IMG/VR virus record: IMGVR_UViG_3300011443_000001
DNA length: 64,000 bases
Direction: 5' to 3' (one strand)
Source: a virus
This document shows positions 1,569 to 45,841 of this stretch, one piece after another. Position 1 is the stretch's first letter, and every line of letters begins with the position of its first letter. The translations under genes and the position numbers were made by a program. The notes under the pieces are model-generated. The model was not told the origin of the DNA and searched no databases. It was given only the letters and a program-made list of their open reading frames with translations.

Positions 1569-2138
1569 ATGAACCAACAGTATCCTATGCTTGTTCCGAA
1601 CCGGGAGTCCGTAAACTCGGAGCAAATTTCTACTCTCCTGCACGTCATCAACGCCTTCCAAGCGTATCTGCTGGCGCCTCACCGGGAGTTTGACCCGAAT
1701 AACGCGCACCCGGAGCTGGACGGCGGGGCGCTGGCCGCGGCGACCGTGACCTTCGGCAACGCCTGCAAAAAGCTGGACGAGATACTTAACGACAACGGCC
1801 GTTGGGGGCTGGACAAGGCGAACGACCTTTATGGGTCACTCGTCAAGACCCAGGAGGCCCATCAAGCGCTGCTCGGCGCGCAGAAGAAGGTCGCGGAGGC
1901 CGCGCTTCTGCCGCACAGTCAGCTCAAGCCGACAATTTTCCAGCACGGGGGAATTTTCCTCGCCATCTACGGCGACCCGTCTATCCCCGCCGGCCACATC
2001 GTGGGTCGCGGGTTCACGCCGGAGGCGGCGCTTAACGACTTTGACCTTGCTTTCAAACGACTGGCGAACGACCAATACCAAATTGCGGTCGAGCCGGGCG
2101 ACGACACCAACCCAAAGAACAACAAGAAGACCAAATGA
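1569..2138 (+). CDS. Hypothetical protein
   Basis: 189-aa ORF in operon, preceded by promoter-like motif at 1533. Confidence 0.7.
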   Translation: MNQQYPMLVPNRESVNSEQISTLLHVINAFQAYLLAPHREFDPNNAHPELDGGALAAATVTFGNACKKLDEILNDNGRWGLDKANDLYGSLVKTQEAHQALLGAQKKVAEAALLPHSQLKPTIFQHGGIFLAIYGDPSIPAGHIVGRGFTPEAALNDFDLAFKRLANDQYQIAVEPGDDTNPKNNKKTK

Positions 2139-3211
2139 AGTGGACCCCAAAAGATATCCAGGCGTTTGCCGGGCTTGTAGCCGCTGGCTACACTGATGAA
2201 GGACTGGCAAAGAGCTTTGGAATTAGTGAGCCGGCCGTGCGGCGTGCGCGGCAGCGGTTCGTTCCGTCCAGTGTGACGCGGCGCGGCGAAGCGGCGAAAA
2301 TTGAAGTGGTGGAAGCCGCGCCCGCGAAGCCGGTGGACCCGAAGGAGGCGTTCATTTCCAAGGAACCCCTCCCGTTCGGAACCATCCCACTCGACGTGGT
2401 TGACGGCGACGACTGGACCCGGCTCGGGCTCGTGTCTGATACACACCTTTGCTGCCGGGAAGAACGGCTCGACGCGCTGCACGCGCAATACGACATCTTC
2501 GAGCGCGAGGGCATCGTAGACGTTTTCCACGGTGGCAACATCGTTGACGGATACGTTCCGAGAATCAACGGCGGCTCTGTTTACGAGTCGTCCATCGACG
2601 GACAGGCCATCTACTGCGCGAAACAATATCCCCAGCGCAAGGGAATCACTACGCACTTCATCACCGGCAACGACCATGAGGGCTGGTGGCAGAAAGAGGG
2701 CTTCAACTTCGGTGCGTATCTCGAATTCGTGGCACGCACAAGTTTTCAGCGCACCGACCTGCACTACATCGGGCACGTTGAAGCGGACATCCTGCTGCGC
2801 GCCGGCGAATTTACTCAGGTGATGAAAATCCAGCACCCCGGCGGCGGCTCGGCCTACGCTCGGTCTTACAAGGGCCAGAAAATGGTGGAGAGCTTCCAGG
2901 GCGGCGAGAAGCCGGCCATTCTGGTGCAAGGCCACTATCATGTAAGCGGCTACAGTTTTGACCGCAATGTTCACATCATCGGCATGCCCGGTTTTCAGGA
3001 CCAGACCATCTTCGGCCGCACAAAACATCTGCGCTACGAAATCGGCGGCGTCACGCTGGACTTCAAAATGTCGTCCAAGACCGGCGCCATTACTCGAATT
3101 CGCCCTGAATTCTGCATGTTTTTCGACCGCGGTTTTTATAAAAAATTCCTTGCGTCGGACAAGCTTCTGGTGCATCCTATCCGGACCGTGGTGAACACTG
3201 GTAACATTTAG
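2135..3211 (+). CDS. Calcineurin-like metallophosphoesterase with N-terminal HTH
   Basis: SDTH, GGNIVDG, GNDHE, QHP, GHYH metal-binding motifs; N-terminal HTH-like LAKSFGISEPAVRRAR. Confidence 0.8.
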   Translation: MKWTPKDIQAFAGLVAAGYTDEGLAKSFGISEPAVRRARQRFVPSSVTRRGEAAKIEVVEAAPAKPVDPKEAFISKEPLPFGTIPLDVVDGDDWTRLGLVSDTHLCCREERLDALHAQYDIFEREGIVDVFHGGNIVDGYVPRINGGSVYESSIDGQAIYCAKQYPQRKGITTHFITGNDHEGWWQKEGFNFGAYLEFVARTSFQRTDLHYIGHVEADILLRAGEFTQVMKIQHPGGGSAYARSYKGQKMVESFQGGEKPAILVQGHYHVSGYSFDRNVHIIGMPGFQDQTIFGRTKHLRYEIGGVTLDFKMSSKTGAITRIRPEFCMFFDRGFYKKFLASDKLLVHPIRTVVNTGNI

Positions 3212-3242
3212 CGCCCCGTAAGCGCCTAAACCTACAGAGACA

Positions 3243-3683
3243 ATGAACAAAATCATCCTAATGGCGCTGCTCGTGGCAGCGGTCCCGGCGTTCGCCGGAG
3301 TCAAGGAAATCGGCACCGTGAACGGCCTGAAGGTCGTCCGCATCAAGACGGCCGGCGTGTTCGCTCCGAGCACGACGACGGTTGTGGTGTTCGACCCGAA
3401 GAAGCCCGGCACCATCGAAGCCGTTCTGAACGGCACCGGCGGTCCGGGCTTCGTTCCGGCGGTCGCGACGGCCGGCGGCATCGTGGGCGGCGCGGCTGTG
3501 CTGCGTCCGGCTCGCACGAAGGTCCAACAGTCCGGCGGCAATGCCACCGGCGTGGGAGTCGGGACGGGCGGCAATGGCACCGGCGGCAATGGCACCGGCG
3601 GCAATGGCACCGGCGGGGCCGGCGGCGTTGGCGGTGGGGCCTTCGTTCCTCCTGGCCACCAGAACAACCCCAGCAACAACTAA
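3243..3683 (+). CDS. Secreted protein with Gly-rich GGNGT repeat tail
   Basis: Signal peptide MNKIILMALLVAAVPAFA; repeats at C-terminus. Confidence 0.75.
   Translation: MNKIILMALLVAAVPAFAGVKEIGTVNGLKVVRIKTAGVFAPSTTTVVVFDPKKPGTIEAVLNGTGGPGFVPAVATAGGIVGGAAVLRPARTKVQQSGGNATGVGVGTGGNGTGGNGTGGNGTGGAGGVGGGAFVPPGHQNNPSNN
3567..3611 (+). repeat. Three exact tandem 15-bp repeats (ggcggcaatggcacc), coding GGNGT
   Basis: Read directly; degenerate copy at 3534-3548. Confidence 0.9.
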
Positions 3684-7100: not shown

Positions 7101-9410
<2,310 letters not shown>

Positions 9411-10687: not shown

Positions 10688-13600
10688 TTAATCTTCGCTC
10701 GGGACAAGTGGAATGTCAAGCTGGCCGGACTTGCGTTGTTCGGTGCGTTGCCGGGCGTCCCGCCCCTGGCGCGAGGCTTCCTTTTTCGCCGACACCGGGA
10801 TATCTAACGTCTCCGGGTGTGCCCCCGGCTCAAGCGACTGGAGCCAGTAAGCGTAGTCCGACTTGGCCGCGCCAACAAAACCGGTCCAGCCATTGTCTTC
10901 CCAGCGCTGCTTCTCCGAAAACCAAACCAGCGCTTGCAACGCGTCGGGCTTCACGCCCATTTTGTCCGCGGCCATTTGAAAAGCCTTCTGTGCGGTCGTG
11001 AAGTTTTCCGCAGAGATGCCCCAGCCGGCCGGCGGCGCCACCCGCCACTGGCCTTGCAACGACTCCGGGGACTGCCCCAGGCGCATTAGAAATCGCGTGG
11101 CCCAGATGTCGATAGTCGCATCGTGGCCCTCGCCCGTCAGGTTCGACAAAAAGTTTTTCACCTTCGGTCCGCCTACGTCCTCGAGCCACGTTCCGGCCAA
11201 AACATCGAGCACGGCGAACGAGTGCATCCCGTATTTCGCCGGTTCGCCGGTTGCGCTGGACTTGCGCTTGGGCAACAGGTCATGTTTGTCCACAAACCAT
11301 GTCAGAAAGTTGTTTCGGTTTTTCTGACCAACGACCGTCGCGTCCGGCTTGTGTGTTCCACCGGTTTCCTCAACCCATTCGCTGACCTCCGGTCCGCCGG
11401 TCTTCCATTCGGCCCGGCCCTCCTTGTATTTTTTCACAAGGCCGTCATATTCGCCGCGTCGGGCGGCGTTCCAGGCGTCGAGCGCGTAGTAAAAATTGAC
11501 CTGCACCCCGTTTTGGGGTGACGTGGCAGCAAGCAACTGGGCAAACAGTCCGGGGTCGGCCCCAAAGTATTTCTTGATGAGCTTGACCGCGTCGTCATAC
11601 CACGTCAGACCCTTGTTCATCTCCGGATTCTTGAGCGCGGTGTTCGCTTCATCCACAATTTTGTCCGACAACGCTTGGGCGATGGCCTCTTGTTTCGGAA
11701 CGCCCGGGTTATTCCGGACTGCGTCGCGCGCGAGCGGCGTCTGGTCAAGCACGGCTTCTTCGTCGGCCGGTGTCAATTTGCCGCCAGTGAGTTTCAGCTT
11801 GTCTTTGGAGTCCCGAACAAACCGCGTAGGATACGCTTCCGGGTAGGCTTTGTCCATTTCCTCGTTGTGCGACTTCGCCGCGGCTTCCGCGGTCTTCGGC
11901 GTAAGTTTTTCCTTGGCCAGATATCCTTCACGCTCGTCACCACCAAGCGCCCGAGCACGCTGAATAGCGGACGGACCGGCCTTGGGTGCGCCCGCGCGAG
12001 GATTCACCGAGTCCAGCATTTTTTCCAGCTCTATACGCGGGTCATCCGCATCAAAAAGCTTGGCGGTTGCTTGGTCCGTTACGTTGCCCTTGCTGTCCAA
12101 AAGCGTGAGCCGAACGTTGTCCACGTTCTCCGCGTTGTCATCCAGAAGTTTTTCGATGGCCCGTTTCTGGGCACCCCTGTAAAAGTCCTTGTTCACTTCG
12201 ACAACCATACGGCCTGCGTAATCGCGAGCGCGGACGAAGCCCTTATTGAGCGCGTCAACGCGGTCCATAACGGTCGCCTCCGACCCGAACGCGGTCCCGA
12301 ATTGGTCGTTCAGTCGGGACGAGTTTTCGCCCAACCACTGTTCGTGGAAATCAGTGTCCAGGCCCACAAACTCACCGTCCGGCAGAATCCAACCCGTCGG
12401 TTTTCCAGACTTAGGCTTGGCTTCCTCCGGCACGTTGTATTTCGAGTAGTCGGTTGCTGCGACCCGCGCCATGGCTTGTTCTTCCGTCTCTCGACCGGCC
12501 GCTTTGCGTTTCTTCGGCAAGTATCCGCCTCGAGTTTCTTCTGCGACTTTTTTCAGCTTGAGCGTTTCACTCAGTCCGTCGAAGGTGGGGACTCGGTCTT
12601 CAACAGTGAAGAGTCCTTTGTAACTGTCACCGACCTGTGGAAAAGATTCGTCCATGCTCGAACGCACCAGGACCGTAGCGTCCGGCTTAACCTGTGCATG
12701 AACGTTGGACAAAATCTGGCCCTTTGCTTCGGGCGTTGTGCCAGCGTCCAGCGCCACGACCACATTGTCATAGTCACCCAGGCGAGCTTCTTCTCCGGCG
12801 CCAGAAAACATTCGGCCTTTGACTCCGGCTTTGTTGAGAACTTTGTTTCCAACCGATACCGCTTCGGGTGCGATGTCCAGCCCGTCCACTCGGCGACCCA
12901 GGTTTTCCTCCAGGAGAATTTGGCTAATAGGCATCGGCCCGCTTCCGACAAATACGACCGAGCCCTTGTCCACCAACTTCGCTTCGTCCGCGAGCGTTGT
13001 CTTATACGAGTCATAGAAAGGGTAGTCGGAGATTTGCTTAGCGCCGGCGATTACCTCTTTCGCGAAGTCGGCTTCCTTGCGGAATTCAGACTCCGGCGTG
13101 AGGGGTTCTTCGGTAAGCATTCCCTTGCGCGCCTCAGCCGCAAAAGGCGCGGTCCGCTCGGGATACGCTTTGCGCCAGCCGGACGGGCCGGCAGCCGAGC
13201 CGCTGTCCGTCGCAGCTTCGATGGCTTCTCGGAAAAATTGTGCTTTGGTCGCGTTGGCGGATGCCTCGTCGAGCGCGTCAAAGTTCCCGGCCTTGACCTT
13301 GGCCATCGACTCCTGGGCCGCTTTGCTTGCGGTTTCCTGCGCGGACAACAGCGCGGCCACGTCGTCTTTGGACTTCAGACCCAGGCCCAGCTCGTATGCC
13401 GTCCGAGTCAGCGAGCCGCTAGGCCCGAAGAATTGTTGCCACTCTTCCGGGGTCGTCTTGTGAACATCCTCGATGGTTTTGGCCACGGGCTGGTCAGTCA
13501 AAAATCCGGCGCGGGCGATGTCAGTAGAACCTCCCCGTCCCGTGATGGAGGGCGCCCGGCGCGCGGTGACAATGTCGGGTGCGTTTAGTCGTTCGACGAC

Positions 13601-16600
13601 CGTGTGTAAATTCTGAACCGGCATTCCGGCCGCGCGAAAACGGTTGCGCAACGGATTGGTTTCGCGCAGCTCCACCGGACCGCGGCCCTTGGTCGCTGTC
13701 TCGGGGTAAACCGGAATTTCGGTGCCCGGAGCGATACGCTCGGACTCCAAGCCCTGGGCCGCGCGGATTTCCTGCGCCTTGATGTTGGCCGGGAGCTGGC
13801 CCTTCACCGTGCGGGCAGTCGCGGGCGGACCCACATCTTTTCCCTGGAGCAGATTGAGCCACTGTTCCTTCTCCGCGCCGAGCAAAATACCTTCGCCCCG
13901 CTCGGCGGGGATTGACGCACCTAGTTCGGCCGGCGGACGCACCAGCGGCTCGCCACCGCCGCGGAAGCCGCGGTCTTGATTGTCCCAGTAACTATTCAGG
14001 TCCGCCATCAGGTCGTTCAGACCGTCGGGGGTCAATGCCCCGTTGGCGTCTGTGGCCCACGGCACCGGCTCGCCCGTGGCTTTGGCCCACTGCACCGTCC
14101 GGTCCACGTTGGCTAAAACTTTGTCCGTGCTGCGCGCAATGAGCTGCGGCATGCCAGACTTCGTCGTCTCCCATCTTGTGGGACGCAATTCCTTGCCATG
14201 AAGTTCGCGCGCCTCGGGCGGCAGCCCGCGGCCTTCTTCAATCTCCACGGCGCGCTCGGGCTCGGTCGCGTTAAACTTCTCGGCCTTAGCGCCGGAATGC
14301 TCAACCTGAAGCCCGACATTCTCGTCCATCGCGCGATTGACTTCCTGGACCGCTGGTTGGTTGGGCTTTCCTTCGGCCCACTTCTGAGCGACTCCGGCGT
14401 TCGTCGTCTCAGCACGACGGGCCGACAAATCTTTCTGCGTGGTCCGAATGGAGCGCGCCGTCGGCTGACCTTCGACTGGCACCGGCGCGGGAGGGGTCGC
14501 AGCCGGGGCAGGTTCGGGTTGGGCCGACGGCTGCTCAAAAAGAGGTAGTTCGCCCTGCGCCGTCACAGGTTCAACGGGGACTTCCACGGGCTTGGGCGGT
14601 TCGGCCGTCACCGCCGGCTCAACCGGCAACTCCACAGCGGTCTTGGCTTGCGCCTGTCGCTGGTTGCGCTCGCTGAGTATTTCACCCGTAGCGTTTTCCA
14701 ACGCCTTGCGGAGACTGTAGGACGGCCGCAAATCCAGCCCAGGCGTTGCCCGGCCGGCGGTCATGTCAATTCCCAGCGCTTCACCAAGCTGGACCGCAGC
14801 ATCCAAAAATTTCTGCCTAAATCCCGACTTCGCCGGCGGCAAGCCCAACGTCTCGAGCGGCGTGTTGTATAACAGGTTCGCCCAGTTGTCCGCGATGAAT
14901 TCGCTACGGGCTTCATCGGGCGTGACCGCACGTCCGAGCTGTTGCTCATAGTGAGCCTGCAACGCATCGAGTTCCTCGGGCTTATACGCTTTTCGAACCG
15001 CGTCGTGCAGCGCTTCGCGAGCCTCGGGCGCCATCACGCTCTCGAGGACGTGGGAAAATTCGTGGGGCGCGTCAGCCGACGACTTGACGAGCGTAACCAT
15101 CTCGCCAACCCCCGCATCGTCGGCCATGAAAATCTTGGAGATGCCACGAGACTGAGCTTCTGCTGCCACAGCCGCGGCTTGCTCAGGCGTCAGCGCTTGA
15201 CCGCTGTTCGCGCGGACGGTGTCGTTCTCGATTGCTTTGGCAAACGTTGCGTCGTCCACCAAAAACAGCTTTTTGCCGAATGGCCGGAGCGTTTCCCGCA
15301 GGCTGTCCACCATGTTTCGGGAATTCTCGGGTGTATGAGATGCGACCTGCTCGTGGACCGTGTTAAGTTCGGTGAAGCCATCATAGGCCGGAGACTGTGT
15401 TTTCTCCCAGGTGATTTGGCCGGGGTCGAAATAGCGCTTGGCCGCGCGCTCCGCGACGGCGCCCTTGACGCCCGCGACGCCGCCATGAATTGCGCCGCCC
15501 ACCGCACCGACACCCAGCAAGCCACCTTGGGGCTCATCGGTTGACAGTGCAAGCGGGGCGGTCGCAGCGGCACCTTTTGCGGCGCCGGCCACGGGCGGTT
15601 TGACAAATGCAGCCGCGGACTTCGCGGCATCCAAAACTTTAGCTCCGGTCGTCGTCTGAAGGCCCAGCGAGAGCTGGCCCTTCGGGGCCGCGCCGGCGGC
15701 TTCGCCAACTTCTTTTGCCACACGACCGCCAACCTCGATAATTTTTCCGGCGCCCTTCACTGCCAGCCCCGTAGACACGGCTTTGATATAATGACCCGAA
15801 CCCAAGCCCGCCGCAGTAAAAGTAGGAAGATGAGCCGCCTTCTGAACGAGCTGTCCGGTTACCTCCGCCCCGCGGCCCACGAGCTGCGCGCCCTTGGCAG
15901 CCGCTTGGCCCGCTTGGCGACCCAAATAATTCAACGCAGCGGTTGCGCCGGACTGGTTGGCCGCGGTAAAAAGAACCTTGCCACCCAGGCCAACGGCCTT
16001 GAGTCCGCCGCCGGTGGCGACGAGCGTAATCGGGTCGGTCAAACTCAGTAGCTTGATGTTTTCCGGGTTGAGTTCGACGCCTTCGCTGACGAGGTCTTTG
16101 ACACCTTCGCCACTCGCGAGACCTTCGACGGTTTCGCGCCAACCGAGGTCTTTGAATAACTCGTTTTTGAGTTCATCGTCAGTAATTTTTCGCCAATCTT
16201 TTTTACCGCCCAGTTCAAAAGCGGGTCCAACCAGCTTGCGGGTGCCTTGTCGGACCATATCCTGCAACGAGCCAACCGCGGTCTGCGAGCCGGCGATGGC
16301 TTCCGCGATTGCTGCTTCCTTCCCATCCTCCGTCATGTTCTCCCACTGGTCGCGCTTCTCCGGGTCAGTGCCCTCGCCGCGGAGCTTCATGGTGACTGAA
16401 TCCACCAGAGGTGCAATAGCAATGTCGCTAATGTTCTCCAGTCGTTTCGGAACAGACTTCAAGATGTCCTTCAGAAGCGGCAAAGTGTCCTTCTTCGCGG
16501 ATTCGTAAGTCTTCTTGAGAGTGACGCCCTCAGCTTGCGCTTCACGATAAGTGTCCAGCGCTTTTTGGTAGCGACGCGGGTCGCTGAAAACATTGTCCTT

Positions 16601-16963
16601 GTTCGCGAAAATGAACTCGTGAATCTTGAAATTCGGGTCACGCGCCAAGTCCTTCGGGTCCCGCTCATCCAGAGCGTCGGCTTGACGCTCGCCCTTGAAC
16701 GCGTCCGAGACTTCCTCTTCGCCTGCAAAAGCGTCCGCCTGCTGCTCACCCGCAAACGGGTCTGCCGGCTGCGCCTTCTCTCCAGGGGCAAGCGGAGGCG
16801 CGGGGATGCCCTTCTTCGCGAGCGCTTCCCGCATCTGCTTGCGGCTCTCAGCAAGCTGCGCCTCCACTTCGGGAGTAATCGCCTGCGGCTCCGCGGGAGC
16901 GGGAACGATAGGGATGTCCGTGAACGACTCGCCCTTCCTCAAGTCTTCGATAACAGACGGCAT
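10688..16963 (-). CDS. Giant polyvalent putative internal/ejected virion protein (HExxH peptidase, NAS-like SAM enzyme, HhH-glycosylase-like C-terminus)
   Basis: 2091 aa; position after tail and ejection genes; HEFSH at about 15050; NAS motifs at 12560-13110; LAATSPQN...TIDIW...QALVW at 10900-11620. Confidence 0.8.
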   Translation of the reverse strand: MPSVIEDLRKGESFTDIPIVPAPAEPQAITPEVEAQLAESRKQMREALAKKGIPAPPLAPGEKAQPADPFAGEQQADAFAGEEEVSDAFKGERQADALDERDPKDLARDPNFKIHEFIFANKDNVFSDPRRYQKALDTYREAQAEGVTLKKTYESAKKDTLPLLKDILKSVPKRLENISDIAIAPLVDSVTMKLRGEGTDPEKRDQWENMTEDGKEAAIAEAIAGSQTAVGSLQDMVRQGTRKLVGPAFELGGKKDWRKITDDELKNELFKDLGWRETVEGLASGEGVKDLVSEGVELNPENIKLLSLTDPITLVATGGGLKAVGLGGKVLFTAANQSGATAALNYLGRQAGQAAAKGAQLVGRGAEVTGQLVQKAAHLPTFTAAGLGSGHYIKAVSTGLAVKGAGKIIEVGGRVAKEVGEAAGAAPKGQLSLGLQTTTGAKVLDAAKSAAAFVKPPVAGAAKGAAATAPLALSTDEPQGGLLGVGAVGGAIHGGVAGVKGAVAERAAKRYFDPGQITWEKTQSPAYDGFTELNTVHEQVASHTPENSRNMVDSLRETLRPFGKKLFLVDDATFAKAIENDTVRANSGQALTPEQAAAVAAEAQSRGISKIFMADDAGVGEMVTLVKSSADAPHEFSHVLESVMAPEAREALHDAVRKAYKPEELDALQAHYEQQLGRAVTPDEARSEFIADNWANLLYNTPLETLGLPPAKSGFRQKFLDAAVQLGEALGIDMTAGRATPGLDLRPSYSLRKALENATGEILSERNQRQAQAKTAVELPVEPAVTAEPPKPVEVPVEPVTAQGELPLFEQPSAQPEPAPAATPPAPVPVEGQPTARSIRTTQKDLSARRAETTNAGVAQKWAEGKPNQPAVQEVNRAMDENVGLQVEHSGAKAEKFNATEPERAVEIEEGRGLPPEARELHGKELRPTRWETTKSGMPQLIARSTDKVLANVDRTVQWAKATGEPVPWATDANGALTPDGLNDLMADLNSYWDNQDRGFRGGGEPLVRPPAELGASIPAERGEGILLGAEKEQWLNLLQGKDVGPPATARTVKGQLPANIKAQEIRAAQGLESERIAPGTEIPVYPETATKGRGPVELRETNPLRNRFRAAGMPVQNLHTVVERLNAPDIVTARRAPSITGRGGSTDIARAGFLTDQPVAKTIEDVHKTTPEEWQQFFGPSGSLTRTAYELGLGLKSKDDVAALLSAQETASKAAQESMAKVKAGNFDALDEASANATKAQFFREAIEAATDSGSAAGPSGWRKAYPERTAPFAAEARKGMLTEEPLTPESEFRKEADFAKEVIAGAKQISDYPFYDSYKTTLADEAKLVDKGSVVFVGSGPMPISQILLEENLGRRVDGLDIAPEAVSVGNKVLNKAGVKGRMFSGAGEEARLGDYDNVVVALDAGTTPEAKGQILSNVHAQVKPDATVLVRSSMDESFPQVGDSYKGLFTVEDRVPTFDGLSETLKLKKVAEETRGGYLPKKRKAAGRETEEQAMARVAATDYSKYNVPEEAKPKSGKPTGWILPDGEFVGLDTDFHEQWLGENSSRLNDQFGTAFGSEATVMDRVDALNKGFVRARDYAGRMVVEVNKDFYRGAQKRAIEKLLDDNAENVDNVRLTLLDSKGNVTDQATAKLFDADDPRIELEKMLDSVNPRAGAPKAGPSAIQRARALGGDEREGYLAKEKLTPKTAEAAAKSHNEEMDKAYPEAYPTRFVRDSKDKLKLTGGKLTPADEEAVLDQTPLARDAVRNNPGVPKQEAIAQALSDKIVDEANTALKNPEMNKGLTWYDDAVKLIKKYFGADPGLFAQLLAATSPQNGVQVNFYYALDAWNAARRGEYDGLVKKYKEGRAEWKTGGPEVSEWVEETGGTHKPDATVVGQKNRNNFLTWFVDKHDLLPKRKSSATGEPAKYGMHSFAVLDVLAGTWLEDVGGPKVKNFLSNLTGEGHDATIDIWATRFLMRLGQSPESLQGQWRVAPPAGWGISAENFTTAQKAFQMAADKMGVKPDALQALVWFSEKQRWEDNGWTGFVGAAKSDYAYWLQSLEPGAHPETLDIPVSAKKEASRQGRDARQRTEQRKSGQLDIPLVPSED

Positions 16964-18724: not shown

Positions 18725-19993
18725 TTAAGCCTTTGCCGTCTTCATCTGTTTGATTTCCTTCACGAGCGCTTTCACACTCGCCAAGGCCACTCCAATCGCA
18801 TCGACAATGGGGATGGTTTTCGCATCTCCCTTGCCGGAACCAAAAAGCACGTCCCAGTCCTGAGCCATTGGGCCAGTGTGCCGACCCTGGGGAACGTTCT
18901 CCACGTCCTTTTTGTAGTCCCAGTTCGACACCGGCAGCCGGGAAACCTTTTCCAAAATCGCAGACTCGTCCGCGGTCTCGATATTTTCCTTCGAATTCTT
19001 GTCCGACATCATTCCACCGGCCATGCCCATGATGGAACCCATGCTGCCCTGAGACGCTTGGCTACCGCCACCGCCGCCTCCTCCGCCGGCCCCGCCGTAG
19101 GCGCCAGTCGCCGTGCCGCCCCAGTTACCGGCGGACTGATTCAGCGCGGTGTCGCGGATTCGCGCAAACTCCAAGGCGCGCCACGCGCGCAGATTCTTAA
19201 TCTGCGAGTTGATGTCGCGCTGCGCCTGACGACCAGACAAGTCGAGGTTCAACATCTCGCGGCCGGTCAAACCCGTGCCCGTGCCGGCCTCCGTCGAGTT
19301 GGCCAAACCAAAAATTGCAGCCGAGCGCGCCAGACCTTCTCGCTCTGCGGACTGAATCGTCGGGAAAATAGACCCGAGAATCTTCGCGCGGGACTCCGTC
19401 ATCGATTGTGCCGTGTCCGCGAGCTTGGTCGCTTCCATCGTGCGGGCCTGCCGAAGTTTTTCGCCTTCGCTGCCGAGGACTTTGCTCACGACACCGCCCA
19501 CGGTCGCCGCCTGGGGTTTCACCCCCGCCTGGGCTGACCCGCTGACGCCAGCGCGAATCAACTCAGCTTGATATTCTGCCGGCAAGTCGCCGCCCATCGC
19601 CAGCACGTCGTTCGCTCGCGCGATGACGTTCTGCTTGAGCTTGGCCAACTCCGGGTCCTCGTCGATGTTCTCCGCGAAAAGCTTTCGGGCGGTCTTGCTG
19701 GACTCCAGCGCGGACACGGGCGTCTGCGCCTGTGCGAGAATGTCCTTGCGGGCCTGCTGGCCGGCGGCATACATCTCGGGCTCAAACTCCTTCTGAAGTT
19801 CGACTCGGCGGTCAAGGTAGCCCTTGTCGTATTGCTTGACCAAATTGGCAACGCGCTCCAGGTCGTAATCTTCTTTGAGCGCGGTGCGCTGGTCACGCAG
19901 ACCGTTGCGCATGTTTTCATACGCGTCCTTCATCGCGGCTTCGTCAGTGAAGCGCATCGCGATTGACGCGGCAGTTCCGATAATAGCACCCAT
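18725..19993 (-). CDS. Putative ejection protein with C-terminal peptidase S74 (intramolecular chaperone) domain
   Basis: MSDKNSKENI...LPVSNWDYK...HTGPMAQDW S74 signature after a Gly-rich linker. Confidence 0.75.
   Translation of the reverse strand: MGAIIGTAASIAMRFTDEAAMKDAYENMRNGLRDQRTALKEDYDLERVANLVKQYDKGYLDRRVELQKEFEPEMYAAGQQARKDILAQAQTPVSALESSKTARKLFAENIDEDPELAKLKQNVIARANDVLAMGGDLPAEYQAELIRAGVSGSAQAGVKPQAATVGGVVSKVLGSEGEKLRQARTMEATKLADTAQSMTESRAKILGSIFPTIQSAEREGLARSAAIFGLANSTEAGTGTGLTGREMLNLDLSGRQAQRDINSQIKNLRAWRALEFARIRDTALNQSAGNWGGTATGAYGGAGGGGGGGGSQASQGSMGSIMGMAGGMMSDKNSKENIETADESAILEKVSRLPVSNWDYKKDVENVPQGRHTGPMAQDWDVLFGSGKGDAKTIPIVDAIGVALASVKALVKEIKQMKTAKA

Positions 19994-25776: not shown

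Positions 25777-25780
<4 letters not shown>
25755..25780 (-). promoter_or_regulatory. Short-spacer motif TTGACA-N14-AACACT-TCTT
   Basis: Upstream of tail operon. Confidence 0.7.
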
Positions 25781-26991
<1,211 letters not shown>

Positions 26992-28125: not shown

Positions 28126-28334
28126 TCTCGCAAATCATCAATGATGGTTGAGCCGGTGGCTTCATCCAAAATCGGGAAGCCGTCCTCATCCTGTAGCACG
28201 TCAATCGTCTCATTCACGATGATGCGCGGTGGAAGCGTCCGCCCAGGTAAAATTTTCGTCGCGCCCCGCGGAAAACATGGACGAGACAAATCACCTTCGT
28301 CATCACGATGAAGAGGGAACGTGCAATCTTTCAT
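28122..28334 (-). CDS. Small hypothetical virion-associated protein
   Basis: Coupled ORF; [12 protein letters not shown] motif common in phage fibre-associated proteins. Confidence 0.6.
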
Positions 28335-29494
28335 GCCAGTTGGATAAACATGATGCTCGAGCCATCCTGAAAAATGGTTTGCGGGGCCACCGCGCTATCC
28401 GAGGTCACATGAACATCGATAATCTCGTTCGGGCTGGACGTTGTGACAATCGCCCAGATATGGACGTAGTTACAATGGTCTGACCCTCCGGTATTCCACA
28501 TGATAACCTCAGGGTGCTCCCCGCCGGGAACGGGGGTCGCCGTCGTCTGGTTATTCAAATAGAAATCCCAGCTCAGGTTATTGCCGCTCCCCACATCGTT
28601 AAAACAGCGGAACCGCGCCAAAACAAAGTATGTCCCGACCGCCGGCAGCGTGACTTCCGGGTCGTCGATGCCGAAAGAAATTTTCTGGTCCACGTTCGTG
28701 ACCGCCATGTCCGTAGCACCGGTAATAGTAACCTGCCCGTTAGAATTGGTCGCCACCGAGCCCGCCGGACCCGTAGGACCCGTGGGACCGCCCGCGCCCG
28801 TCGGTCCGGTATTGCCTTGCGCGCCGGTAGGACCCTGGAGGCCCGGCGCACCCGTCGGACCGGTAATCGTAAGACCGCGGGGACCGCACGGCAGAGCAAT
28901 GGTCCCGGGAGTCGTCACCGCATTTGGCGACGGCACGGATTCGATGAGCTGCGCGAAGACAGAATTCGAAATTCGGCTCGTGACCATGTAGTAGCCCGAG
29001 CCCGGAATGAAAATCGTTTGGCCCGGCGTAATGGTGGGCGAGGGAACGATATTGAAATTAACGGTGCCGCCGGGCGACGGCTGCACGAACGCCGTCAGGA
29101 TAATAGTCCAGGCGTTCGCCCCGTTCTCGCCGGCGGCGCCGGCGGCGCCCGTCGGACCCTCCAGCCCATTGATACCGTCTCGGAACAGGCGGAGAAAATA
29201 ACACGCCAGCCCTTCCCCGTCCGCGCGCGGGTTGCCCGGCAGGCCGATGTCCAGGTTACAAGGCAGCAGCCACCGGACTTCTCCATCGATTTCCGTTTTG
29301 GTTACCGAACCAAAAAATGCGTCTACAAAGTTTTGGAGCGCGCTCGGGAGCGTCTCGCAGTCCGCCGTGTTGGGCGGGCATGCGCTGCACGGCGTGCGGC
29401 ACCCCGTCGCACAATTCGCCGGAAAAGTCTGGTTGCAATCTCCGCAATTGCCGCCCCCGCCGCAATCACAATTTCCGCAGTTATTGCAAGCCAT
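28331..29494 (-). CDS. Collagen-containing protein with Cys-rich N-terminus and BclA-like C-terminal beta domain
   Basis: 12 Cys in first 46 aa; GPT repeats; GTYFVLARF...SSIMFIQLA ending. Confidence 0.75.
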   Translation of the reverse strand: MACNNCGNCDCGGGGNCGDCNQTFPANCATGCRTPCSACPPNTADCETLPSALQNFVDAFFGSVTKTEIDGEVRWLLPCNLDIGLPGNPRADGEGLACYFLRLFRDGINGLEGPTGAAGAAGENGANAWTIILTAFVQPSPGGTVNFNIVPSPTITPGQTIFIPGSGYYMVTSRISNSVFAQLIESVPSPNAVTTPGTIALPCGPRGLTITGPTGAPGLQGPTGAQGNTGPTGAGGPTGPTGPAGSVATNSNGQVTITGATDMAVTNVDQKISFGIDDPEVTLPAVGTYFVLARFRCFNDVGSGNNLSWDFYLNNQTTATPVPGGEHPEVIMWNTGGSDHCNYVHIWAIVTTSSPNEIIDVHVTSDSAVAPQTIFQDGSSIMFIQLA

Positions 29495-31742: not shown

Positions 31743-33023
31743 TTAGGAGTCGCAGACTCCCAAAGAGGCAAACGCGTCGCTTCCAGAGAAGCTGGAGCTG
31801 TCCGGAACCACGCAGTCGGGCAGACCGAGGTCAGCCGTGCAGCGCCGGTAAAGGATGGGGATGACGTGCTGCGGGCGAATCGGCTGATACGCACGAGTAA
31901 TCTGATACTTGTGCCAACCGAAGTCACCGAACTGATTGCAGTCGTTGTCCACGATGTAGTGCCACTCGAGTTCGCCCATGTGCAACTGGGGCGCGAACTT
32001 GAAGGTCCCTTCGCCAACATACTTCTCAGGCACGAGCCGGTTGAAGGTGTTGTCGAACATGAGGAACCCGACTTCGTAATCCGCAGCCAACCACGCAGGG
32101 TTGATTTTGGCGAAGGCCGTGTTCTTCGTGAGGTTCGGGACATTCACGACGGGGTCAACCAGAATGAGGTTACCGTCGGCGTCAAAACCAGTCGCGCGGA
32201 GCGGACGTTGGTCCACACCGAAAGACAGACCGCGGTAAGCGGGCGCCTCTTCGAACTGATACGCACTGACGGCTTCCTTGCCGAGCATGTAGCTACCGCA
32301 AGTGAGCCCGATGAGAATTTCCTTCACGCCGATTTCATTCCGGAAACTCTCGATGATGTCGGAGCTGCCGATGAAGCGAGCGTGGGGCATGCCCTTACCA
32401 CCGCTGTCGAACATGGAGGCGAACAACGCTTCCTTGACGAAACGGGTGACGTAGTGCAGCGCCTTAAAGCTCAGCGGCCCGGTGGGCAGCAAAGGAGCGA
32501 ACTGGACGCCGAGGTCGGTTTCGGTTCCGCCGGTGAACAGAGAATCGAAATCATAGCCGGCGACAGCGTTGAACTTCGACGCACTGCGCAGATACAACTG
32601 CGCGCGAATATCCGAATTCACGTATTGCGTAATCAGCTTCCGCAGGGAATCCTCCGCAGACAGGTAGCTAGATTTGAAGGCCGCATAGCCTTTCTTCACG
32701 CACACGCGAGGACCGCGGCCACGTTTCGTTTCGAGACGAGCGGTGAAGTCAATCGCATCGGTGAGGTCCTGGATGCCGTTGGTTCCGCAAACTTCAGTGT
32801 CGCACTGAAAAGTGGGGAGGGCCAGCGAGTCGCCGGGGGCGGCTTGCATCTGGACGGGGAAACGGATTTCATCCGACACGCCGGACGGGAACACCCCGCC
32901 GCCGATTACGTTGATGAAAACCGAGTTTGCAGCCAAAGTCTTGGCTACGGTGCCCACCAATCGCGAAACGTCCTTCTGGGCAATTTCGCTTATGGTATCT
33001 GGGCTGTTACAATCTGCACTCAA
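31743..33023 (-). CDS. Major capsid protein (probable)
   Basis: 426 aa from TTG at 33023 preceded by aagga; own promoter-like motif upstream and hairpin downstream; position between scaffold and tail genes. Confidence 0.7.
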   Translation of the reverse strand: MSADCNSPDTISEIAQKDVSRLVGTVAKTLAANSVFINVIGGGVFPSGVSDEIRFPVQMQAAPGDSLALPTFQCDTEVCGTNGIQDLTDAIDFTARLETKRGRGPRVCVKKGYAAFKSSYLSAEDSLRKLITQYVNSDIRAQLYLRSASKFNAVAGYDFDSLFTGGTETDLGVQFAPLLPTGPLSFKALHYVTRFVKEALFASMFDSGGKGMPHARFIGSSDIIESFRNEIGVKEILIGLTCGSYMLGKEAVSAYQFEEAPAYRGLSFGVDQRPLRATGFDADGNLILVDPVVNVPNLTKNTAFAKINPAWLAADYEVGFLMFDNTFNRLVPEKYVGEGTFKFAPQLHMGELEWHYIVDNDCNQFGDFGWHKYQITRAYQPIRPQHVIPILYRRCTADLGLPDCVVPDSSSFSGSDAFASLGVCDS

Positions 33024-33186
33024 GGTATTTTTCCTTGGTTGTGTCTGAGGAATTTTCCCCAGACGGGTTAACGATGTCACGCAGTAGGGCGTAACTGCCT
33101 CTCGCTCCAGAGCCACCGAAGCGTCTTAGGCTCGTTCCCGTTCGACCAAGGCGGGCAGATTGCTTTTAAGGTCTGTGCAGGGAAGA

Positions 33187-39073: not shown

Positions 39074-41233
39074 TTATAAGGTCGGTGCGGGTGCCGTTTC
39101 GGGCGGAGGGGCTTCTGGCGCCGGCGGCGCACCTTCAATCGGTGCTCCGGTTTCGTCAAGCGGTCCGGGGGGCGCTCCCGCGTCGAGTTCCGCCTGTCGT
39201 TGTTCGGCCTTCGCTTGCTGCTCGGCTGCTTCCGCAAGTTTCGGCAACTGCGCGGCAAGTTTAGCAATGATATCGCTGAACGGCGCCATCTCATCTTTGG
39301 ACACGCCGACCTCAAGGCCAGCCTGCTCGTGCATCTTCGCGTGCTGCAAAATTGCCATCAACGTTTGCAGCGCATTTGGGTCCTGAACCGCCTGCTGCGC
39401 GGTAGACTCCAGTGCCGGCATCAAAACATTGAGATGGATGATGTGATTATCGCGAGGCGACACCGGAACATCCGCGCTCTGCGGAATAATAATCGAAGCC
39501 AGCTCCATCATCTGGGCACGCGTCTGCTCGGCCTCTTCCGTCGGGTCGTTGTCCGGCAACAGCACCGCATCCGCGAATTCCTCGTCCACGAGCGCAGTAA
39601 GTTTGCGCCGCTCAATTTCCTTCGCGTTGTAAAGGGGGTTCCCCCGGGCTTCGGTCGCGATGATAACGATTTGCTGCCGCTTAATCTCGGTGTAATCCTT
39701 CACCGTTTCCGCCGAGGGGGTGTTGGCAAGCTGGTCCAACTCTTCCCTCGTCATAATTTTCAGGAGACGCTCCTGCATCGCCTTCGCATCATCCTCGCTA
39801 GTGTTCGGGTCACACATGCGCTTCTGCATGGTCGTCACCGCCGCCGAAAACTGCGTCAGGAATCGCGAAATGATGTTGTCCTTGGTTTCTTCCTCACGCG
39901 ACGCGAGAAAATCCACCGCAGCTTTGGTCACACGCTCACCCTCCAGGGCCTTGGGGGTTGTGGCACCCGCCATCTGGTCCAGGAGGTTCGTCAAAAACTG
40001 GTCTAGCTGCACAAAGGGCTCCACCGCGGCGTCCAGCTTTCGCTCGAGCACGTTGTAGCCTTGCGCAATAAGAATCGCATTGCCGACGACGGACATTCGG
40101 AAGCGCTTGAGCACTTTTTCGTCCGCCTGGATGATAACTTTGCCGGAAAGATTGAGTCGGTCCACCACCTCGTTGCGCGAACGGTCGATAATGCCCGCAA
40201 TAGAGTAAAGCTCGCGACCAATTCCCTTCGAACCGTGAAGCGTGCCGTTGCCTTGCTGAAAACTGAAGAACGCGACGGCGTCCGCCATCGATTCATACTG
40301 GTCTTCGCTCGTGAACAGCTCCGTGAACGTCTTTTCTTCGAAAATGTAGTGAGAAACCTTGCCGTCAATCTCGGTGGCGAGCAAATGCCACACCACGACG
40401 ACCCGCGCGCCGCTTTCGTGCGACATCCCGAGGTTAGACTCACGAATCAGGTCCTCGTAAACGCGTTCCCAGGCTGAATACTGCGAGCGTCGGTCCTGCG
40501 GCATCGATGCGTTAATCATCATGACCGTATTTGCGAGATTCCAGCCGCGAGTTTTCGCCGACTCCTTATCCGAAATCAATTCGAACAGCTCATGAAGCAG
40601 AAAAACCTCCTTGAGCGCGACCACCTGGGCTTTTCCGGGAATCGGTTTCGTGCCCGTGGGCACGGCCATGAAGTCTTGACGGAAAAATTTCGGAAACCAA
40701 CTGAATTCATCGAGCCACGCGACCGACGCGAAGCCGAAAAGTGCGTTCTCCTGCGCCAAGTCGCCGAGAAAATCCCGCCAGCCGGCGCGGTTGCGCGCGA
40801 GCGCGGTCACTTCCCGCCGGAACGCCTCCGTTTTCACCGCGGCGCCCTCGATATCCTCCGGCAACGCCGAGTTGGTGATGTATTTCACGCCCTCGACGGC
40901 CTGAACAAACCGCGGAGCGACCTTCTCCACCAACATCGCGAGGACCTTGGTCGAAAAATTCGCCTTCCAACCCAGTCCCTCGTTCTCGAGCGAGTCGGTC
41001 CGGTGCGGTTTCTCCGAATTAACCTTCGCTTGGATGCGCGCGTTCTTGATGTTCCGCTCTCGCGACGCCGCCAGCAACACCAGGACGATGTTTTTGGCCT
41101 GATTCGCGTCCTTGATGGCCCGGTTCCCTGGCTTCAGGTTCTTGGACAGGGCGGGCGGAGAGACGGCCCCTTGGAAATCTTCCTGAGGTCCGCCGACCAT
41201 GATTGGTTCAGACCGTGATGGCGTAAGTGGCAT
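39074..41233 (-). CDS. Portal protein (probable)
   Basis: 719 aa helical protein downstream of TerL with Pro/Ala/Glu-rich tail as in podophage portals. Confidence 0.7.
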   Translation of the reverse strand: MPLTPSRSEPIMVGGPQEDFQGAVSPPALSKNLKPGNRAIKDANQAKNIVLVLLAASRERNIKNARIQAKVNSEKPHRTDSLENEGLGWKANFSTKVLAMLVEKVAPRFVQAVEGVKYITNSALPEDIEGAAVKTEAFRREVTALARNRAGWRDFLGDLAQENALFGFASVAWLDEFSWFPKFFRQDFMAVPTGTKPIPGKAQVVALKEVFLLHELFELISDKESAKTRGWNLANTVMMINASMPQDRRSQYSAWERVYEDLIRESNLGMSHESGARVVVVWHLLATEIDGKVSHYIFEEKTFTELFTSEDQYESMADAVAFFSFQQGNGTLHGSKGIGRELYSIAGIIDRSRNEVVDRLNLSGKVIIQADEKVLKRFRMSVVGNAILIAQGYNVLERKLDAAVEPFVQLDQFLTNLLDQMAGATTPKALEGERVTKAAVDFLASREEETKDNIISRFLTQFSAAVTTMQKRMCDPNTSEDDAKAMQERLLKIMTREELDQLANTPSAETVKDYTEIKRQQIVIIATEARGNPLYNAKEIERRKLTALVDEEFADAVLLPDNDPTEEAEQTRAQMMELASIIIPQSADVPVSPRDNHIIHLNVLMPALESTAQQAVQDPNALQTLMAILQHAKMHEQAGLEVGVSKDEMAPFSDIIAKLAAQLPKLAEAAEQQAKAEQRQAELDAGAPPGPLDETGAPIEGAPPAPEAPPPETAPAPTL

Positions 41234-41784: not shown

Positions 41785-43716
41785 TCACATATCGTTGTCG
41801 TCCAGCGCCGTGTCCAGGTCCTCGAATCGGTTCGTCCGGTCGCAGCCGATGTCGCGCGCCTGGGGGTCCCACTCCGACTGGTGCTCGATGGGCTCCACGT
41901 CGGTGTCGCCGGCCATGCTGGGCGTAAACCCGAACCCGCGGCGCGCGGCCTGCAAAAGCAGGGTGAACGCGTCCGCGCTGTTCGGAGACTTGCCGGCGTG
42001 CCGGGACTTGTATTCTTTTTTGGACTCGACGTGTGACTTTTTTCCAATCATTCGGAACAGCCGGTCCGTAAGCTCCGGATACAGCTCGGACGTATCCAGT
42101 CCGAATGCGCAGAACATATACTTGAACTCGAGCCACCGTCGCAGAGCGAACCACAACTCGGAATTCACCCGGTCATAAAGTTCCTTGGCCGTGTCTTCAT
42201 CTTCGATAAACACCCGCGCGTCCGTCGCGCCCTCGTAAAAGTTCACGCCGACGACCGACGGCGACCACCGAGCCCGCAGGTAATCGTAAACTCCCTGACC
42301 GTTGCCCGTCCGGTCCAGCGCGAGGTGCTCGGGTCGAATCTTCATTGCGCGGCAGAGCCGCATGACTTCGTCTCCGACGACGAACGTGTCGCCATTCGGT
42401 ATGATGAAAATTTTCTCCGCGAGCAAAATGTGTTTCGGGGACTTATGCCCGTTGCGGTCCATAAAATAAATCGTTTCGCCCTCCGGATGCGCAAGGCTCG
42501 GACCCATACGCAGCCCGGTCGCCCGACCGAACAGCCCCTTGCACATCATGCACGCGTCACCGCCCTCGAGCGCAAGGTCCGCGCCCGCACACGGCTCCGG
42601 CACGTCATACCAAATCACCTCGCACTTCAGATTAACCGTTAGCCCTTGTGGAATCACCGCGAGCGCGACACCGATGGGCGGAAAACATCCGCGCACCATC
42701 GTCCAGTATCCCGGCGAGTCGAGCCCGCCAGCGTTGGCGATGATTTGCTGCATGCCCTCGTAGGTCTGCATGCCGGGATAAATCTCCCGCTTCTCTTTGA
42801 TGTTTTCGGACTGCATCGCGTCCAGGCGGACAATCCACCATCCGCGGACGGACATCCAATCGAAGTGCAGGTCAGGGTCGAAACTTCCCCAGCCGAACTT
42901 CGGCTCGCAGCGAACGCCTACGTCGTTGTTCCGGTCGTCCGGGTTGAACGCGCCGTAAACTTTCAGCCCGCCTCGATTCGAGGCGTTGGACAGCAAGTTG
43001 TCAATATCGTGCCACAGCCCTTTTGGCAGGTTGGAAATTTCGTCCACGAACACGAACAGCCGGCTCGTCTCGCCAAATTCCGGATGCGGAGTCTTGCGCC
43101 GAAAACGCGCGACACCTTGCAGCCGGCCCGCCGCCTTTTTCCCTTGCGGGATTACGACGCCCGCGATAGAGCCGCGCCGCTTGCGCAGGTCAAGACCGAT
43201 AAACAGCTTTCCGATTTCCCCCGGCAGCGGGATAGCCGAGTTTCGGTGCAGTTCGACGAGCTGCGAAAACAGGTTGGCTTCGAGATGGTCTTCACTCGGC
43301 CCTAGGACTCGGACCGACGTGTATTCGGGGTCGCGCAGCCACTCCAGAAAGAACCGAATCGCCATGCTGAAGGACTTCGACTGCTTGCCGGCGCCCATCA
43401 GCAATCCGAAGTCGTGTTCGTCAACGGCCGACCATACGCGCTTGGTGTTGTTCGGCCGCGGGTCAAACTGGTTCGGGGTCCACAACAACTGGGCGGCTTC
43501 TTCCATCGCGCCATGGTTCATGGCCCAGTGCAGGAGAATGTTTAGAAGCTCAAACGCCTTGGCCTTGGTTTCGACCGACTGCTTGGCCATCGCCGGCGTG
43601 GTCTGTGCTGCCCAGGCGCGAACGAGCCGCGCGGCGTCGTAAATCTCGCCGGCGTGAATGAGTTTCGCAGTCTCGCGAAGGAGTCCCTTAACGGGGTGTG
43701 ACTCTGGTAAAGCCAT
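41785..43716 (-). CDS. terL: Terminase large subunit
   Basis: Walker A-like MGAGKQSKS, Walker B FVFVDE, RNase H-like GADLALEGGD, ALDRTGNG, SPNSADA. Confidence 0.85.
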   Translation of the reverse strand: MALPESHPVKGLLRETAKLIHAGEIYDAARLVRAWAAQTTPAMAKQSVETKAKAFELLNILLHWAMNHGAMEEAAQLLWTPNQFDPRPNNTKRVWSAVDEHDFGLLMGAGKQSKSFSMAIRFFLEWLRDPEYTSVRVLGPSEDHLEANLFSQLVELHRNSAIPLPGEIGKLFIGLDLRKRRGSIAGVVIPQGKKAAGRLQGVARFRRKTPHPEFGETSRLFVFVDEISNLPKGLWHDIDNLLSNASNRGGLKVYGAFNPDDRNNDVGVRCEPKFGWGSFDPDLHFDWMSVRGWWIVRLDAMQSENIKEKREIYPGMQTYEGMQQIIANAGGLDSPGYWTMVRGCFPPIGVALAVIPQGLTVNLKCEVIWYDVPEPCAGADLALEGGDACMMCKGLFGRATGLRMGPSLAHPEGETIYFMDRNGHKSPKHILLAEKIFIIPNGDTFVVGDEVMRLCRAMKIRPEHLALDRTGNGQGVYDYLRARWSPSVVGVNFYEGATDARVFIEDEDTAKELYDRVNSELWFALRRWLEFKYMFCAFGLDTSELYPELTDRLFRMIGKKSHVESKKEYKSRHAGKSPNSADAFTLLLQAARRGFGFTPSMAGDTDVEPIEHQSEWDPQARDIGCDRTNRFEDLDTALDDNDM

Positions 43717-44267: not shown

Positions 44268-44342
44268 TGGTTGCAGGAGACGGAGTTGAACCGCCGACCT
44301 TCTGGTTATGAGCCAGACGAGCTACCACTGCTCCATCCTGCA
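44268..44342 (-). tRNA. tRNA-Met (CAT), initiator-like, CCA encoded
   Basis: TGCAGGATGGAGCAGTGGTAGCTCGTCTGGCTCATAACCAGAAGGTCGGCGGTTCAACTCCGTCTCCTGCAACCA folds into a full cloverleaf. Confidence 0.95.
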
Positions 44343-45344: not shown

Positions 45345-45841
45345 GGCTGTATCCTTTGGCCGGTGTCCGGGTCGTAGCCGATATACGCGGAAAAGTCCCC
45401 CGCGGTCATTCTGTTCCACGCGAACCAAATGTCCTTGAGCTGTTGCCGGCTGTGACAGGCCCGTGTCAGCAGGTGCGTAGCCGGGAACGAATACAGCCGC
45501 TCAAAGTCGGTCGTCGGACGACTTCCAAAAATGTTCGCGGGCGCCCACTTGTTCGATTGCAGCTCGGCGAACGCGCAGCACCAGCCCTCGCCCCAGTTCG
45601 GAAACCGATGTATCAGCGGCGCGCGGAACGCCACCGAATGGAAAACCTCGTGCCACAGCCCGTCAATGGGCTGGTCCCATCCCAGTGTTATCCGGGCGCA
45701 CGTATTCTCTCGCCAGGGCGGATACCACAGTCCGCCCGCGCCGTTTTCCAAGCGCCAAATAATTTCGTCCAACTCGACAAACTCCCAGGACGGCCCGACC
45801 CAGGTCTTCGCTTCGGCGATGATGTGGTGAAACGGACTCAT
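45341..45841 (-). CDS. Putative zinc metallopeptidase (HExxH...E)
   Basis: WHEVFH...WGEGW. Confidence 0.55.
   Translation of the reverse strand: MSPFHHIIAEAKTWVGPSWEFVELDEIIWRLENGAGGLWYPPWRENTCARITLGWDQPIDGLWHEVFHSVAFRAPLIHRFPNWGEGWCCAFAELQSNKWAPANIFGSRPTTDFERLYSFPATHLLTRACHSRQQLKDIWFAWNRMTAGDFSAYIGYDPDTGQRIQP

Follow-up and report, generated by a model that had tools for sequence, protein, structure and literature searches.

A predicted, N-terminally shortened nicotianamine synthase-like domain in the cargo slot of a giant phage protein

The 64,000-nucleotide viral DNA IMGVR_UViG_3300011443_000001 (hereafter the window, meaning that whole stretch) carries on its minus strand a giant open reading frame (ORF), P0002, whose product of 2091 amino acids (aa) is a polyvalent-type multidomain protein lying in a late/tail gene cluster. 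Within it sits a shortened S-adenosylmethionine (SAM)-binding domain that belongs, by sequence and modelled structure, to the nicotianamine synthase (NAS) superfamily. To our knowledge, the only role on record for NAS-type enzymes is the production of metal chelators, in plants, fungi and archaea as well as in some bacteria. The initial annotation, made from the letters alone, had placed such a domain inside a 2091-aa protein on the strength of seven quoted motifs; the ORF is confirmed, and all seven motifs occur in the order given between aa 1290 and 1436 (12656-13096). The range first assigned to the domain, 12560-13110, is right for the minus strand, the plus strand giving an unrelated frame, and the true borders lie at 12506-13099. 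The features central to the argument are these, with residues numbered as in P0002.

10688..16963, minus strand: giant ORF P0002, 2091 aa, polyvalent-type multidomain protein of the late/tail gene cluster (ORF list and translation)
12506..13099, minus strand: NAS-like cassette, aa 1289-1486, a shortened SAM-binding domain (PF03059, profiles and structural model; borders set where homology to P0152, P0153 and P0154 is lost)
13073..13075, minus strand: codon of E1297, equivalent of Glu81 of the thermonicotianamine synthase MtNAS (invariant in 44 domain copies; HMMER alignment to 3fpe)
13004..13006, minus strand: codon of Y1320, equivalent of MtNAS Tyr107 (invariant in 44; aligned to Y107)
12929..12952, minus strand: NAS-type glycine loop FVGSGPMP, aa 1338-1345, predicted to bind SAM (G1340, G1342 and P1345 invariant)
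12662..12724, minus strand: span from K1414 to R1434, which makes up the K...RS portion of the NAS motifs (both invariant; they match the conserved K and RS/RT positions in MtNAS and canonical NAS)

Family assignment and catalytic residues

The Pfam NAS family (PF03059) matches full-length P0002 with 39.5 bits (E 5e-10, aa 1294-1436) and the excised domain with 44.7 bits (E 1.4e-11), the gathering cut-off being 27.1 bits; Methyltransf_25 reaches 15.7-18.4 bits on P0002 or the domain against a cut-off of 27 bits, and every methyltransferase match in Pfam falls below its own cut-off. With aa 1265-1480 as query, phmmer was run exhaustively over 1.84 billion representative proteins and returned 344 matches in three groups, namely copies of the domain embedded in large polypeptides (1100-3800 aa), free-standing proteins 186-290 aa long, and weaker matches beginning at residue 60-110 of proteins of 250-300 aa. 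The last of these are canonical NAS-like proteins, all 40 of the 40 tested matching PF03059 (best E 3.3e-68). Alignment A1, built from 44 embedded and free-standing copies, gives a profile that finds MtNAS (3fpe) in the PDB at E 1.6e-18 and the aminobutanoyltransferase CntL at E 7e-12, the best methyltransferase following at E 9e-6. Compared profile to profile with the 40 canonical proteins, A1 matches with a probability of 100% (E 5.7e-47).

Structure prediction leads to the same family. The AlphaFold model of aa 1280-1475 has a mean predicted local distance difference test score (pLDDT) of 93.6, and Foldseek ranks MtNAS first (template modelling score, TM, 0.79), CntL second and methyltransferases after them, while the matched clusters of the AFDB are nicotianamine synthases (TM 0.79-0.81). 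VIA-align gives MtNAS a Z of 21.4 with 190 of 196 residues aligned and CntL a Z of 18.8; the best methyltransferase reaches Z 18.0 with 157 residues, methyltransferases in general aligning over ~155-170. Given that these alignments are shorter (157 versus 190 residues), MtNAS and CntL alone also cover both N-terminal helices, in which the catalytic residues lie. Pfam, profile-PDB and profile-profile comparisons and two structure aligners agree, therefore, with what had been proposed from the motifs, that the domain is NAS-like and not a plain methyltransferase, and both of the checks then suggested, PF03059 against methyltransferase families and superposition of a model on MtNAS and CntL, come out on the side of NAS. 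From sequence and model alike, 12506-13099 (minus strand) encodes a genuine member of the NAS superfamily rather than a plain class I methyltransferase.

The same comparisons bear on whether the domain might instead be an N-methyltransferase built on a NAS scaffold, holding SAM in the usual pose and passing its methyl group to an amine of a host or phage macromolecule. Its core is indeed the class I Rossmann methyltransferase fold, with many methyltransferases aligning at Z 16-18; Methyltransf_25/31 match weakly, two family members match a PHROG annotated as methyltransferase, and several related giant proteins hold true methyltransferase domains. However, NAS and CntL outrank all methyltransferases in sequence, profile and structure searches, the NAS-specific helices and catalytic residues are kept, and the glycine loop is of the NAS type, having a hydrophobic residue at the position that in methyltransferase motif I is usually Asp or Glu. 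Methyl transfer on this scaffold is thus unlikely.

Nine positions are invariant in A1 (E1297, Y1320, E1327, G1340, G1342, P1345, L1405, K1414 and R1434), and P0002 keeps all of them. In the HMMER alignment to 3fpe, E1297, Y1320 and E1327 fall on MtNAS E81, Y107 and E114; the helix with the conserved Glu and the FPYY-like segment, both pointed out at first reading, are present and hold the invariant equivalents of Glu81 and Tyr107. In MtNAS, E81 and Y107 deprotonate the acceptor amine (PMC10491745), and AtNAS1 mutants at the same two positions, E77Q and Y106F, are inactive (PMC10248798). Further, the glycine-loop signature FIGSGPLP and the Lys and Arg-Ser columns are also conserved in the consensus of the 40 canonical NAS-like proteins. 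As judged by its conserved residues, the phage NAS-like domain appears catalytically intact.

Comparison with the characterised enzymes sharpens both likeness and difference. MtNAS, from Methanothermobacter thermautotrophicus (PDB 3FPE/3FPF/3FPG/3FPJ), is the best match by profile and by structure and, like the phage domain, has the glycine loop, the catalytic pair Glu81/Tyr107, Glu114, and Lys and Arg at the conserved positions. It is, however, a free-standing cellular enzyme of ~265-300 aa in which a complete N-terminal helical domain surrounds the reaction chamber, whereas the phage domain begins ~67 residues later, is carried by giant proteins, and shows two family-specific traits: a LEAG loop, which reads LDAG in P0002 and brings an additional conserved acidic residue, and the motif F.GLS in the C-terminal hairpin. 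CntL, the D-histidine 2-aminobutanoyltransferase of staphylopine biosynthesis (PDB 7C7M/7C9M), is second-best (E 7e-12, Z 18.8), and its single transfer of the aminocarboxypropyl (acp) group to an amino-acid amine offers the simplest model for a one-step phage enzyme; it operates in an operon with CntK, CntM and transporters, whereas the phage domain is without such partners in the contexts examined. Plant and fungal NAS (core-NAS, PF03059) are related by the Pfam match and by the retained equivalents of E77 and Y106, essential in AtNAS1, but they condense three SAM-derived units, close an azetidine ring, possess the full core domain and serve metal homeostasis.

Since all characterised relatives (NAS, MtNAS and CntL) make chelator precursors, synthesis of a metallophore, a nicotianamine- or opine-type chelator that would alter the metal supply of the infected cell, has to be weighed. 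No Cnt-type partner (opine dehydrogenase, histidine racemase, exporter or metal-regulated gene) was found beside P0002 or the stand-alone homologues examined, the neighbours being tail fibre, acetyltransferase and uncharacterised virion genes in the case of P0002 and small unannotated phage ORFs in that of the homologues, and such a role fits poorly with a single cassette that is interchangeable with ADP-ribosyltransferases, acetyltransferases and radical SAM enzymes; it is accordingly very improbable. Among those ORFs of the window that were scanned, there were no SAM, MTA (5'-methylthioadenosine), polyamine or metal genes.

A shortened clade and an exchangeable cassette

The three nearest relatives of P0002, the giant proteins P0152, P0153 and P0154, are collinear with it over aa 1-1288 and 1487-2091 (P0152 being 67% identical end to end), and identity to all three falls to ~20% exactly over aa 1289-1486. 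In its place they carry an unrelated module of ~150 aa, module X (GEKxGETFxGDG ... NNQEAIFD; P0152:1289-1475, P0153:1350-1530, P0154:1342-1522). Given collinear flanks on both sides of an unrelated module, the NAS-like domain is an autonomous, exchangeable cassette in a cargo slot. At least 11 further giant proteins contain module X, among them P0006, which has the NAS-like domain too; outside giant proteins the module resembles viral hypothetical proteins only (Atlas search).

The slot belongs to a larger family of carriers. Homologues along the full length of P0002 are proteins of 2000-3500 aa on 70-78 kb contigs, and a search with its C-terminal 392 residues recovered 73 proteins of 1174-3564 aa, mostly 2000-3500, many again on 70-78 kb contigs. 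All 73 keep the C-terminal module; their precomputed cargo domains differ.

T4_Y16D: ~31 of 73 giant proteins, the commonest precomputed Pfam cargo
ART-PolyVal: ~17 of 73
Radical SAM: 8 of 73
DUF3293: 8 of 73
GNAT: 6 of 73
NAS-like: 4 of 73, including P0161, found by the family hidden Markov model (HMM)

Seen from the side of the cargo, a Pfam scan of 19 large NAS-bearing proteins found NAS in 18, DUF7178 in 9 and radical SAM domains in 2, with ART-PolyVal, LPD38, LPD22, SLT, NUDIX, GGDEF, GNAT and ParB_N as extra domains of single members.

The domain itself is of a shortened kind. A1 aligns profile to profile with columns 68-275 of the 290 of canonical NAS, free-standing members start only 10-20 residues ahead of the catalytic Glu, and at 186-215 aa the stand-alone members are smaller than a complete core-NAS domain with full N-terminal helices (~260-290 aa). 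The family HMM separates members (190-248 bits) from canonical-length NAS (at most 131 bits), and in a maximum-likelihood tree the branch dividing 48 short-type from 41 canonical sequences has a support of 100/99. Within the short type, embedded and free-standing forms intermix, with 7-8 changes between the two, which indicates that the domain has repeatedly moved into and out of large proteins. An early idea that the truncation is specific to phages was dropped, as the ESM Atlas contains NAS-related clusters of 188-219 aa in Bacillota and Thermoplasmatota; it also shows an all-viral NAS-related cluster of 269 members. A scan of genome contigs found one distant match, in Paenibacillus (27% identity), probably a cellular NAS-like gene. 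For the stand-alone clade there was no match in IMG/VR and one 1.8-kb contig in metagenomes. By alignment, score and tree, these sequences form a distinct, N-terminally shortened NAS clade found mainly in phage sequences.

Reference resources are nearly silent on this clade. PHROGs hold no family for the domain, a structure search of the BFVD with the domain returned ordinary methyltransferases only (TM at most 0.61), and the literature yielded nothing relevant on NAS domains or acp chemistry in phages. Likewise, PMC5512222, on polyvalent proteins, nowhere mentions nicotianamine synthase or glycosylase. The novelty thus lies in a branch of a known enzyme family that is shortened and associated with phages, and in a cargo type new to polyvalent proteins. 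Two parts of the initial annotation need qualifying in this light: the giant protein contains a NAS-like domain but not a full NAS, and although no described phage ejection protein with this domain was found in the literature, the domain is not unique to P0002, being recurrent and also encoded alone.

The giant protein and its surroundings

The P0002 gene is flanked by tail fibre genes on its own strand.

7101..9410, minus strand, as P0002: collagen-like tail fibre gene, downstream of P0002 (PHROG tail fibre families, best E 8.8e-131)
18725..19993, minus strand, as P0002: gene for a fibre or spike that includes an intramolecular chaperone domain, lying upstream of P0002 (Pfam Peptidase_S74, E 9.3e-11)

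Further collagen-like tail fibre genes lie on this strand at 25777-26991 and 28331-29494, as do a GNAT gene and a weak match to an internal virion protein. This position and the composition of P0002 recall the polyvalent proteins described by Iyer et al. 2017 (PMC5512222), which are likewise very large, combine unrelated modules and in phages typically lie beside late virion genes. P0002 unites in one polypeptide the NAS-like cassette, a C-terminal DUF7178 module resembling DNA glycosylases and an HExxH motif, and hallmark polyvalent domains appear in its relatives, ART-PolyVal together with the same C-terminal module, and LPD38, LPD22 and SLT in other NAS-bearing giants. From gene position and the analogy with polyvalent proteins only, we infer that P0002 would be packaged in the virion and ejected with the DNA.

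Elsewhere in the window lie genes for an SNF2 helicase, for a serine recombinase and for sugar modification, besides a single tRNA-Met gene. The tRNA gene (44268-44342) adjoins a serine recombinase/invertase-like gene (44637-45428) on the minus strand. Large ORFs at the positions expected for capsid, portal and terminase (31743-33116, 39074-41233 and 41785-43716) gave no match to Pfam or PHROG families within the thresholds applied, and the lineage of the phage is very poorly covered by reference collections. The phage is an uncultured one of ~73 kb from freshwater sediment, groundwater and soil, the DNA of the P0002 region being found in at least 19 metagenome runs from these three settings; in contigs from 4 independent runs that span the cassette, its sequence is unchanged or nearly so. 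In addition, a few contigs from independent runs, each a single contig of low depth, match the window up to ~12417-12469 and 13190-13225 and then diverge toward the cassette. These are thin hints that strains with alternative cassettes co-exist in nature.

Three other parts of P0002 are conserved among its relatives. In Pfam, NAS and, near the C-terminus, DUF7178 are the sole matches of the protein above cut-off.

15050..15064, minus strand: HExxH motif, aa 634-638, candidate zincin-type metallopeptidase site (motif only)
12005..12445, minus strand: conserved module downstream of the cassette, aa 1507-1653, common to P0003, P0005, P0050, P0153 and P0154 by BLASTP, with no Pfam match
10814..11866, minus strand: constant C-terminal module DUF7178, aa 1700-2050 (PF23802, 40.1 bits), common to the 73 giant proteins

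The HExxH motif recurs as APHExxH in P0003, P0006, P0007 and P0050, which have the same architecture, and in P0152. Since no Pfam peptidase family matches P0002 it is kept as a motif only, although a self-processing metallopeptidase is possible in this region. For the DUF7178 module (model pLDDT 88.9) Foldseek found nothing significant, and in an exhaustive VIA-align comparison all of the top 22 matches fall in the HhH-GPD fold group, the next ones being unrelated with Z at most 4.3. Its best matches are Ogg2 (Z 9.1, 183 residues aligned), OGG1, endonuclease III, ROS1, Mag1, MutY, AlkA and the queuine-salvage enzyme DUF2419. A motif G-P-K-T/V-x-N-F ... A-T-I-D-x-W is kept in 43 sequences, with its Lys (aa 1934) and Asp (aa 1952) invariant; we take these, as a lead only, to resemble the helix-hairpin-helix Lys and the catalytic Asp of endonuclease III. 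The model predicts for this module a helix-hairpin-helix fold like that of DNA glycosylases. Finally, the N-terminal third of P0002 has a long Gly/Ala-rich, weakly hydrophobic stretch at aa ~310-520 (~15400-16030, minus strand), which P0152 conserves and other homologues also possess; within an ejection protein, such a part could act on membranes or form a channel.

Proposed reaction, alternatives and free-standing relatives

On the evidence of its family and conserved residues, the domain probably transfers the acp arm of SAM to an amine, with release of MTA. The explanation of the whole that we favour, at a rough probability of 55%, is that of a NAS-type cargo cassette carrying out a lone acp transfer to a host amine around the time of DNA entry. 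In this scheme SAM would be bound through the NAS-type glycine loop, the pair Glu1297/Tyr1320 would deprotonate a primary amine, and the deprotonated amine would attack the gamma-carbon of SAM, so that the 3-amino-3-carboxypropyl arm would move to the amine and 5'-methylthioadenosine would leave. The domain would act in this way on a substrate of the host cell at or just after entry of the DNA. Its charge offers some guidance as to the acceptor. With a pI of 4.8 and a net charge of -9 in P0002, and a median pI of 5.4 across the family, the domain is acidic, which speaks mildly against a direct nucleic-acid substrate. Taken together with the extra conserved acidic residue, this acidity makes us lean away from DNA or RNA and toward either a protein amine or a small cationic or zwitterionic amine, for which amino acids, polyamines and the amino group of SAM itself are candidates.

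Several observations weigh against this explanation. Some 67 residues (~67) at the start of the canonical N-terminal helical domain are missing from the phage-type domain, and in canonical NAS these residues help to enclose the reaction chamber. Given this loss, the choice of substrate, and even the outcome of the reaction, may differ from those of NAS and CntL. Among cultured phages (INPHARED), tblastn with full-length P0002 and megablast with 20 kb found nothing; with the excised domain there was one weak match, in Pseudomonas phage Y11, of 29% identity and limited to residues 47-174, without the NAS helices. No hallmark polyvalent or virion domain was matched in P0002 itself by Pfam or PHROGs. 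NAS enzymes are reported to be slow and inhibited by MTA (PMC10248798), which makes a bulk drain of SAM by a few injected copies unlikely. Lastly, P0002 is off the family consensus twice, reading LDAG where the family has LEAG and lacking one residue within the GDA motif, and these slight departures could point to a module that merely binds SAM inertly or is purely structural. That, too, is highly improbable, as all nine invariant positions, including the catalytic pair and the glycine loop, are kept and the independent environmental contigs over the cassette vary so little.

Loss of the N-terminal residues bears equally on another account, in which the domain would be a SAM lyase or cyclase without an external acceptor. 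Here SAM's own carboxylate or amine would attack the gamma-carbon, giving MTA and homoserine lactone or azetidine-2-carboxylate, and the role of the reaction would be to bring SAM levels down, thereby weakening SAM-dependent defences such as type I/III restriction or BREX. The shortened N-terminus could leave no space for a second substrate, the domain is without partner genes, and it occupies the cargo slot of a protein that probably acts among the earliest in infection. In general terms such chemistry has precedents, since plant NAS forms an azetidine ring and phage T3 deploys a SAM lyase (SAMase) that acts early, consumes SAM, releases MTA and is used against defences, although the T3 enzyme is a soluble early protein of unrelated fold and mechanism and without an amine acceptor. 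However, the Glu/Tyr pair that deprotonates the acceptor is invariant, where less constraint would be expected without an amine to deprotonate; few injected copies of a slow enzyme family would drain SAM slowly; and the cassette is rare, at 4 of 73 related giant proteins. A lyase or cyclase is therefore also improbable, and acp transfer to an amine is the reading retained. SAM depletion is more plausible for the free-standing forms, which could be expressed abundantly.

The broader proposition, that phages deliver a minimal acp-transferase, in the virion or from accessory genes, to modify a host or phage macromolecule or a defence-related small molecule, is more tentative and, on present evidence, doubtful. 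If true, it would add a previously unknown type of covalent modification to phage-host conflict, and an effector cassette interchangeable with ADP-ribosyltransferases, acetyltransferases and radical SAM enzymes. It would point to SAM chemistry other than methylation in the first minutes of infection. As a small enzyme of ~190 aa the domain should be easy to express, making its substrate directly searchable, and the cargo slot may be mined for further effectors, for example module X of the sister phages.

The free-standing NAS-like genes (~200 aa) sit in long same-strand arrays of small unannotated ORFs, in accessory regions of contigs of 85-176 kb. No recurrent partner gene was found beside the stand-alone homologues examined, and since these lone genes have no conserved partner the domain probably acts by itself, using a substrate that the host cell already contains. 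Neighbours are confined to single cases, a T4_Y16D gene beside P0028 only and, elsewhere, a phosphatase and a macro-domain gene nearby. The T4_Y16D (PF26092) gene, at L001:4316-4633, directly follows the free-standing NAS-like gene; T4_Y16D and the NAS-like domain are both cargo modules of giant proteins that are also present as small genes in large phages. A 463-kb viral contig (L009:7446-8594) encodes a 382-aa protein in which the NAS-like domain is C-terminal. Finally, nine homologues of one clade (P0026, P0028, P0029, P0038, P0040, P0041, P0045, P0046 and P0047) have a Lys-rich N-terminal peptide with the consensus M..IPKMSAKKK, which may serve as a signal for targeting or packaging, or as a tail that binds nucleic acid.

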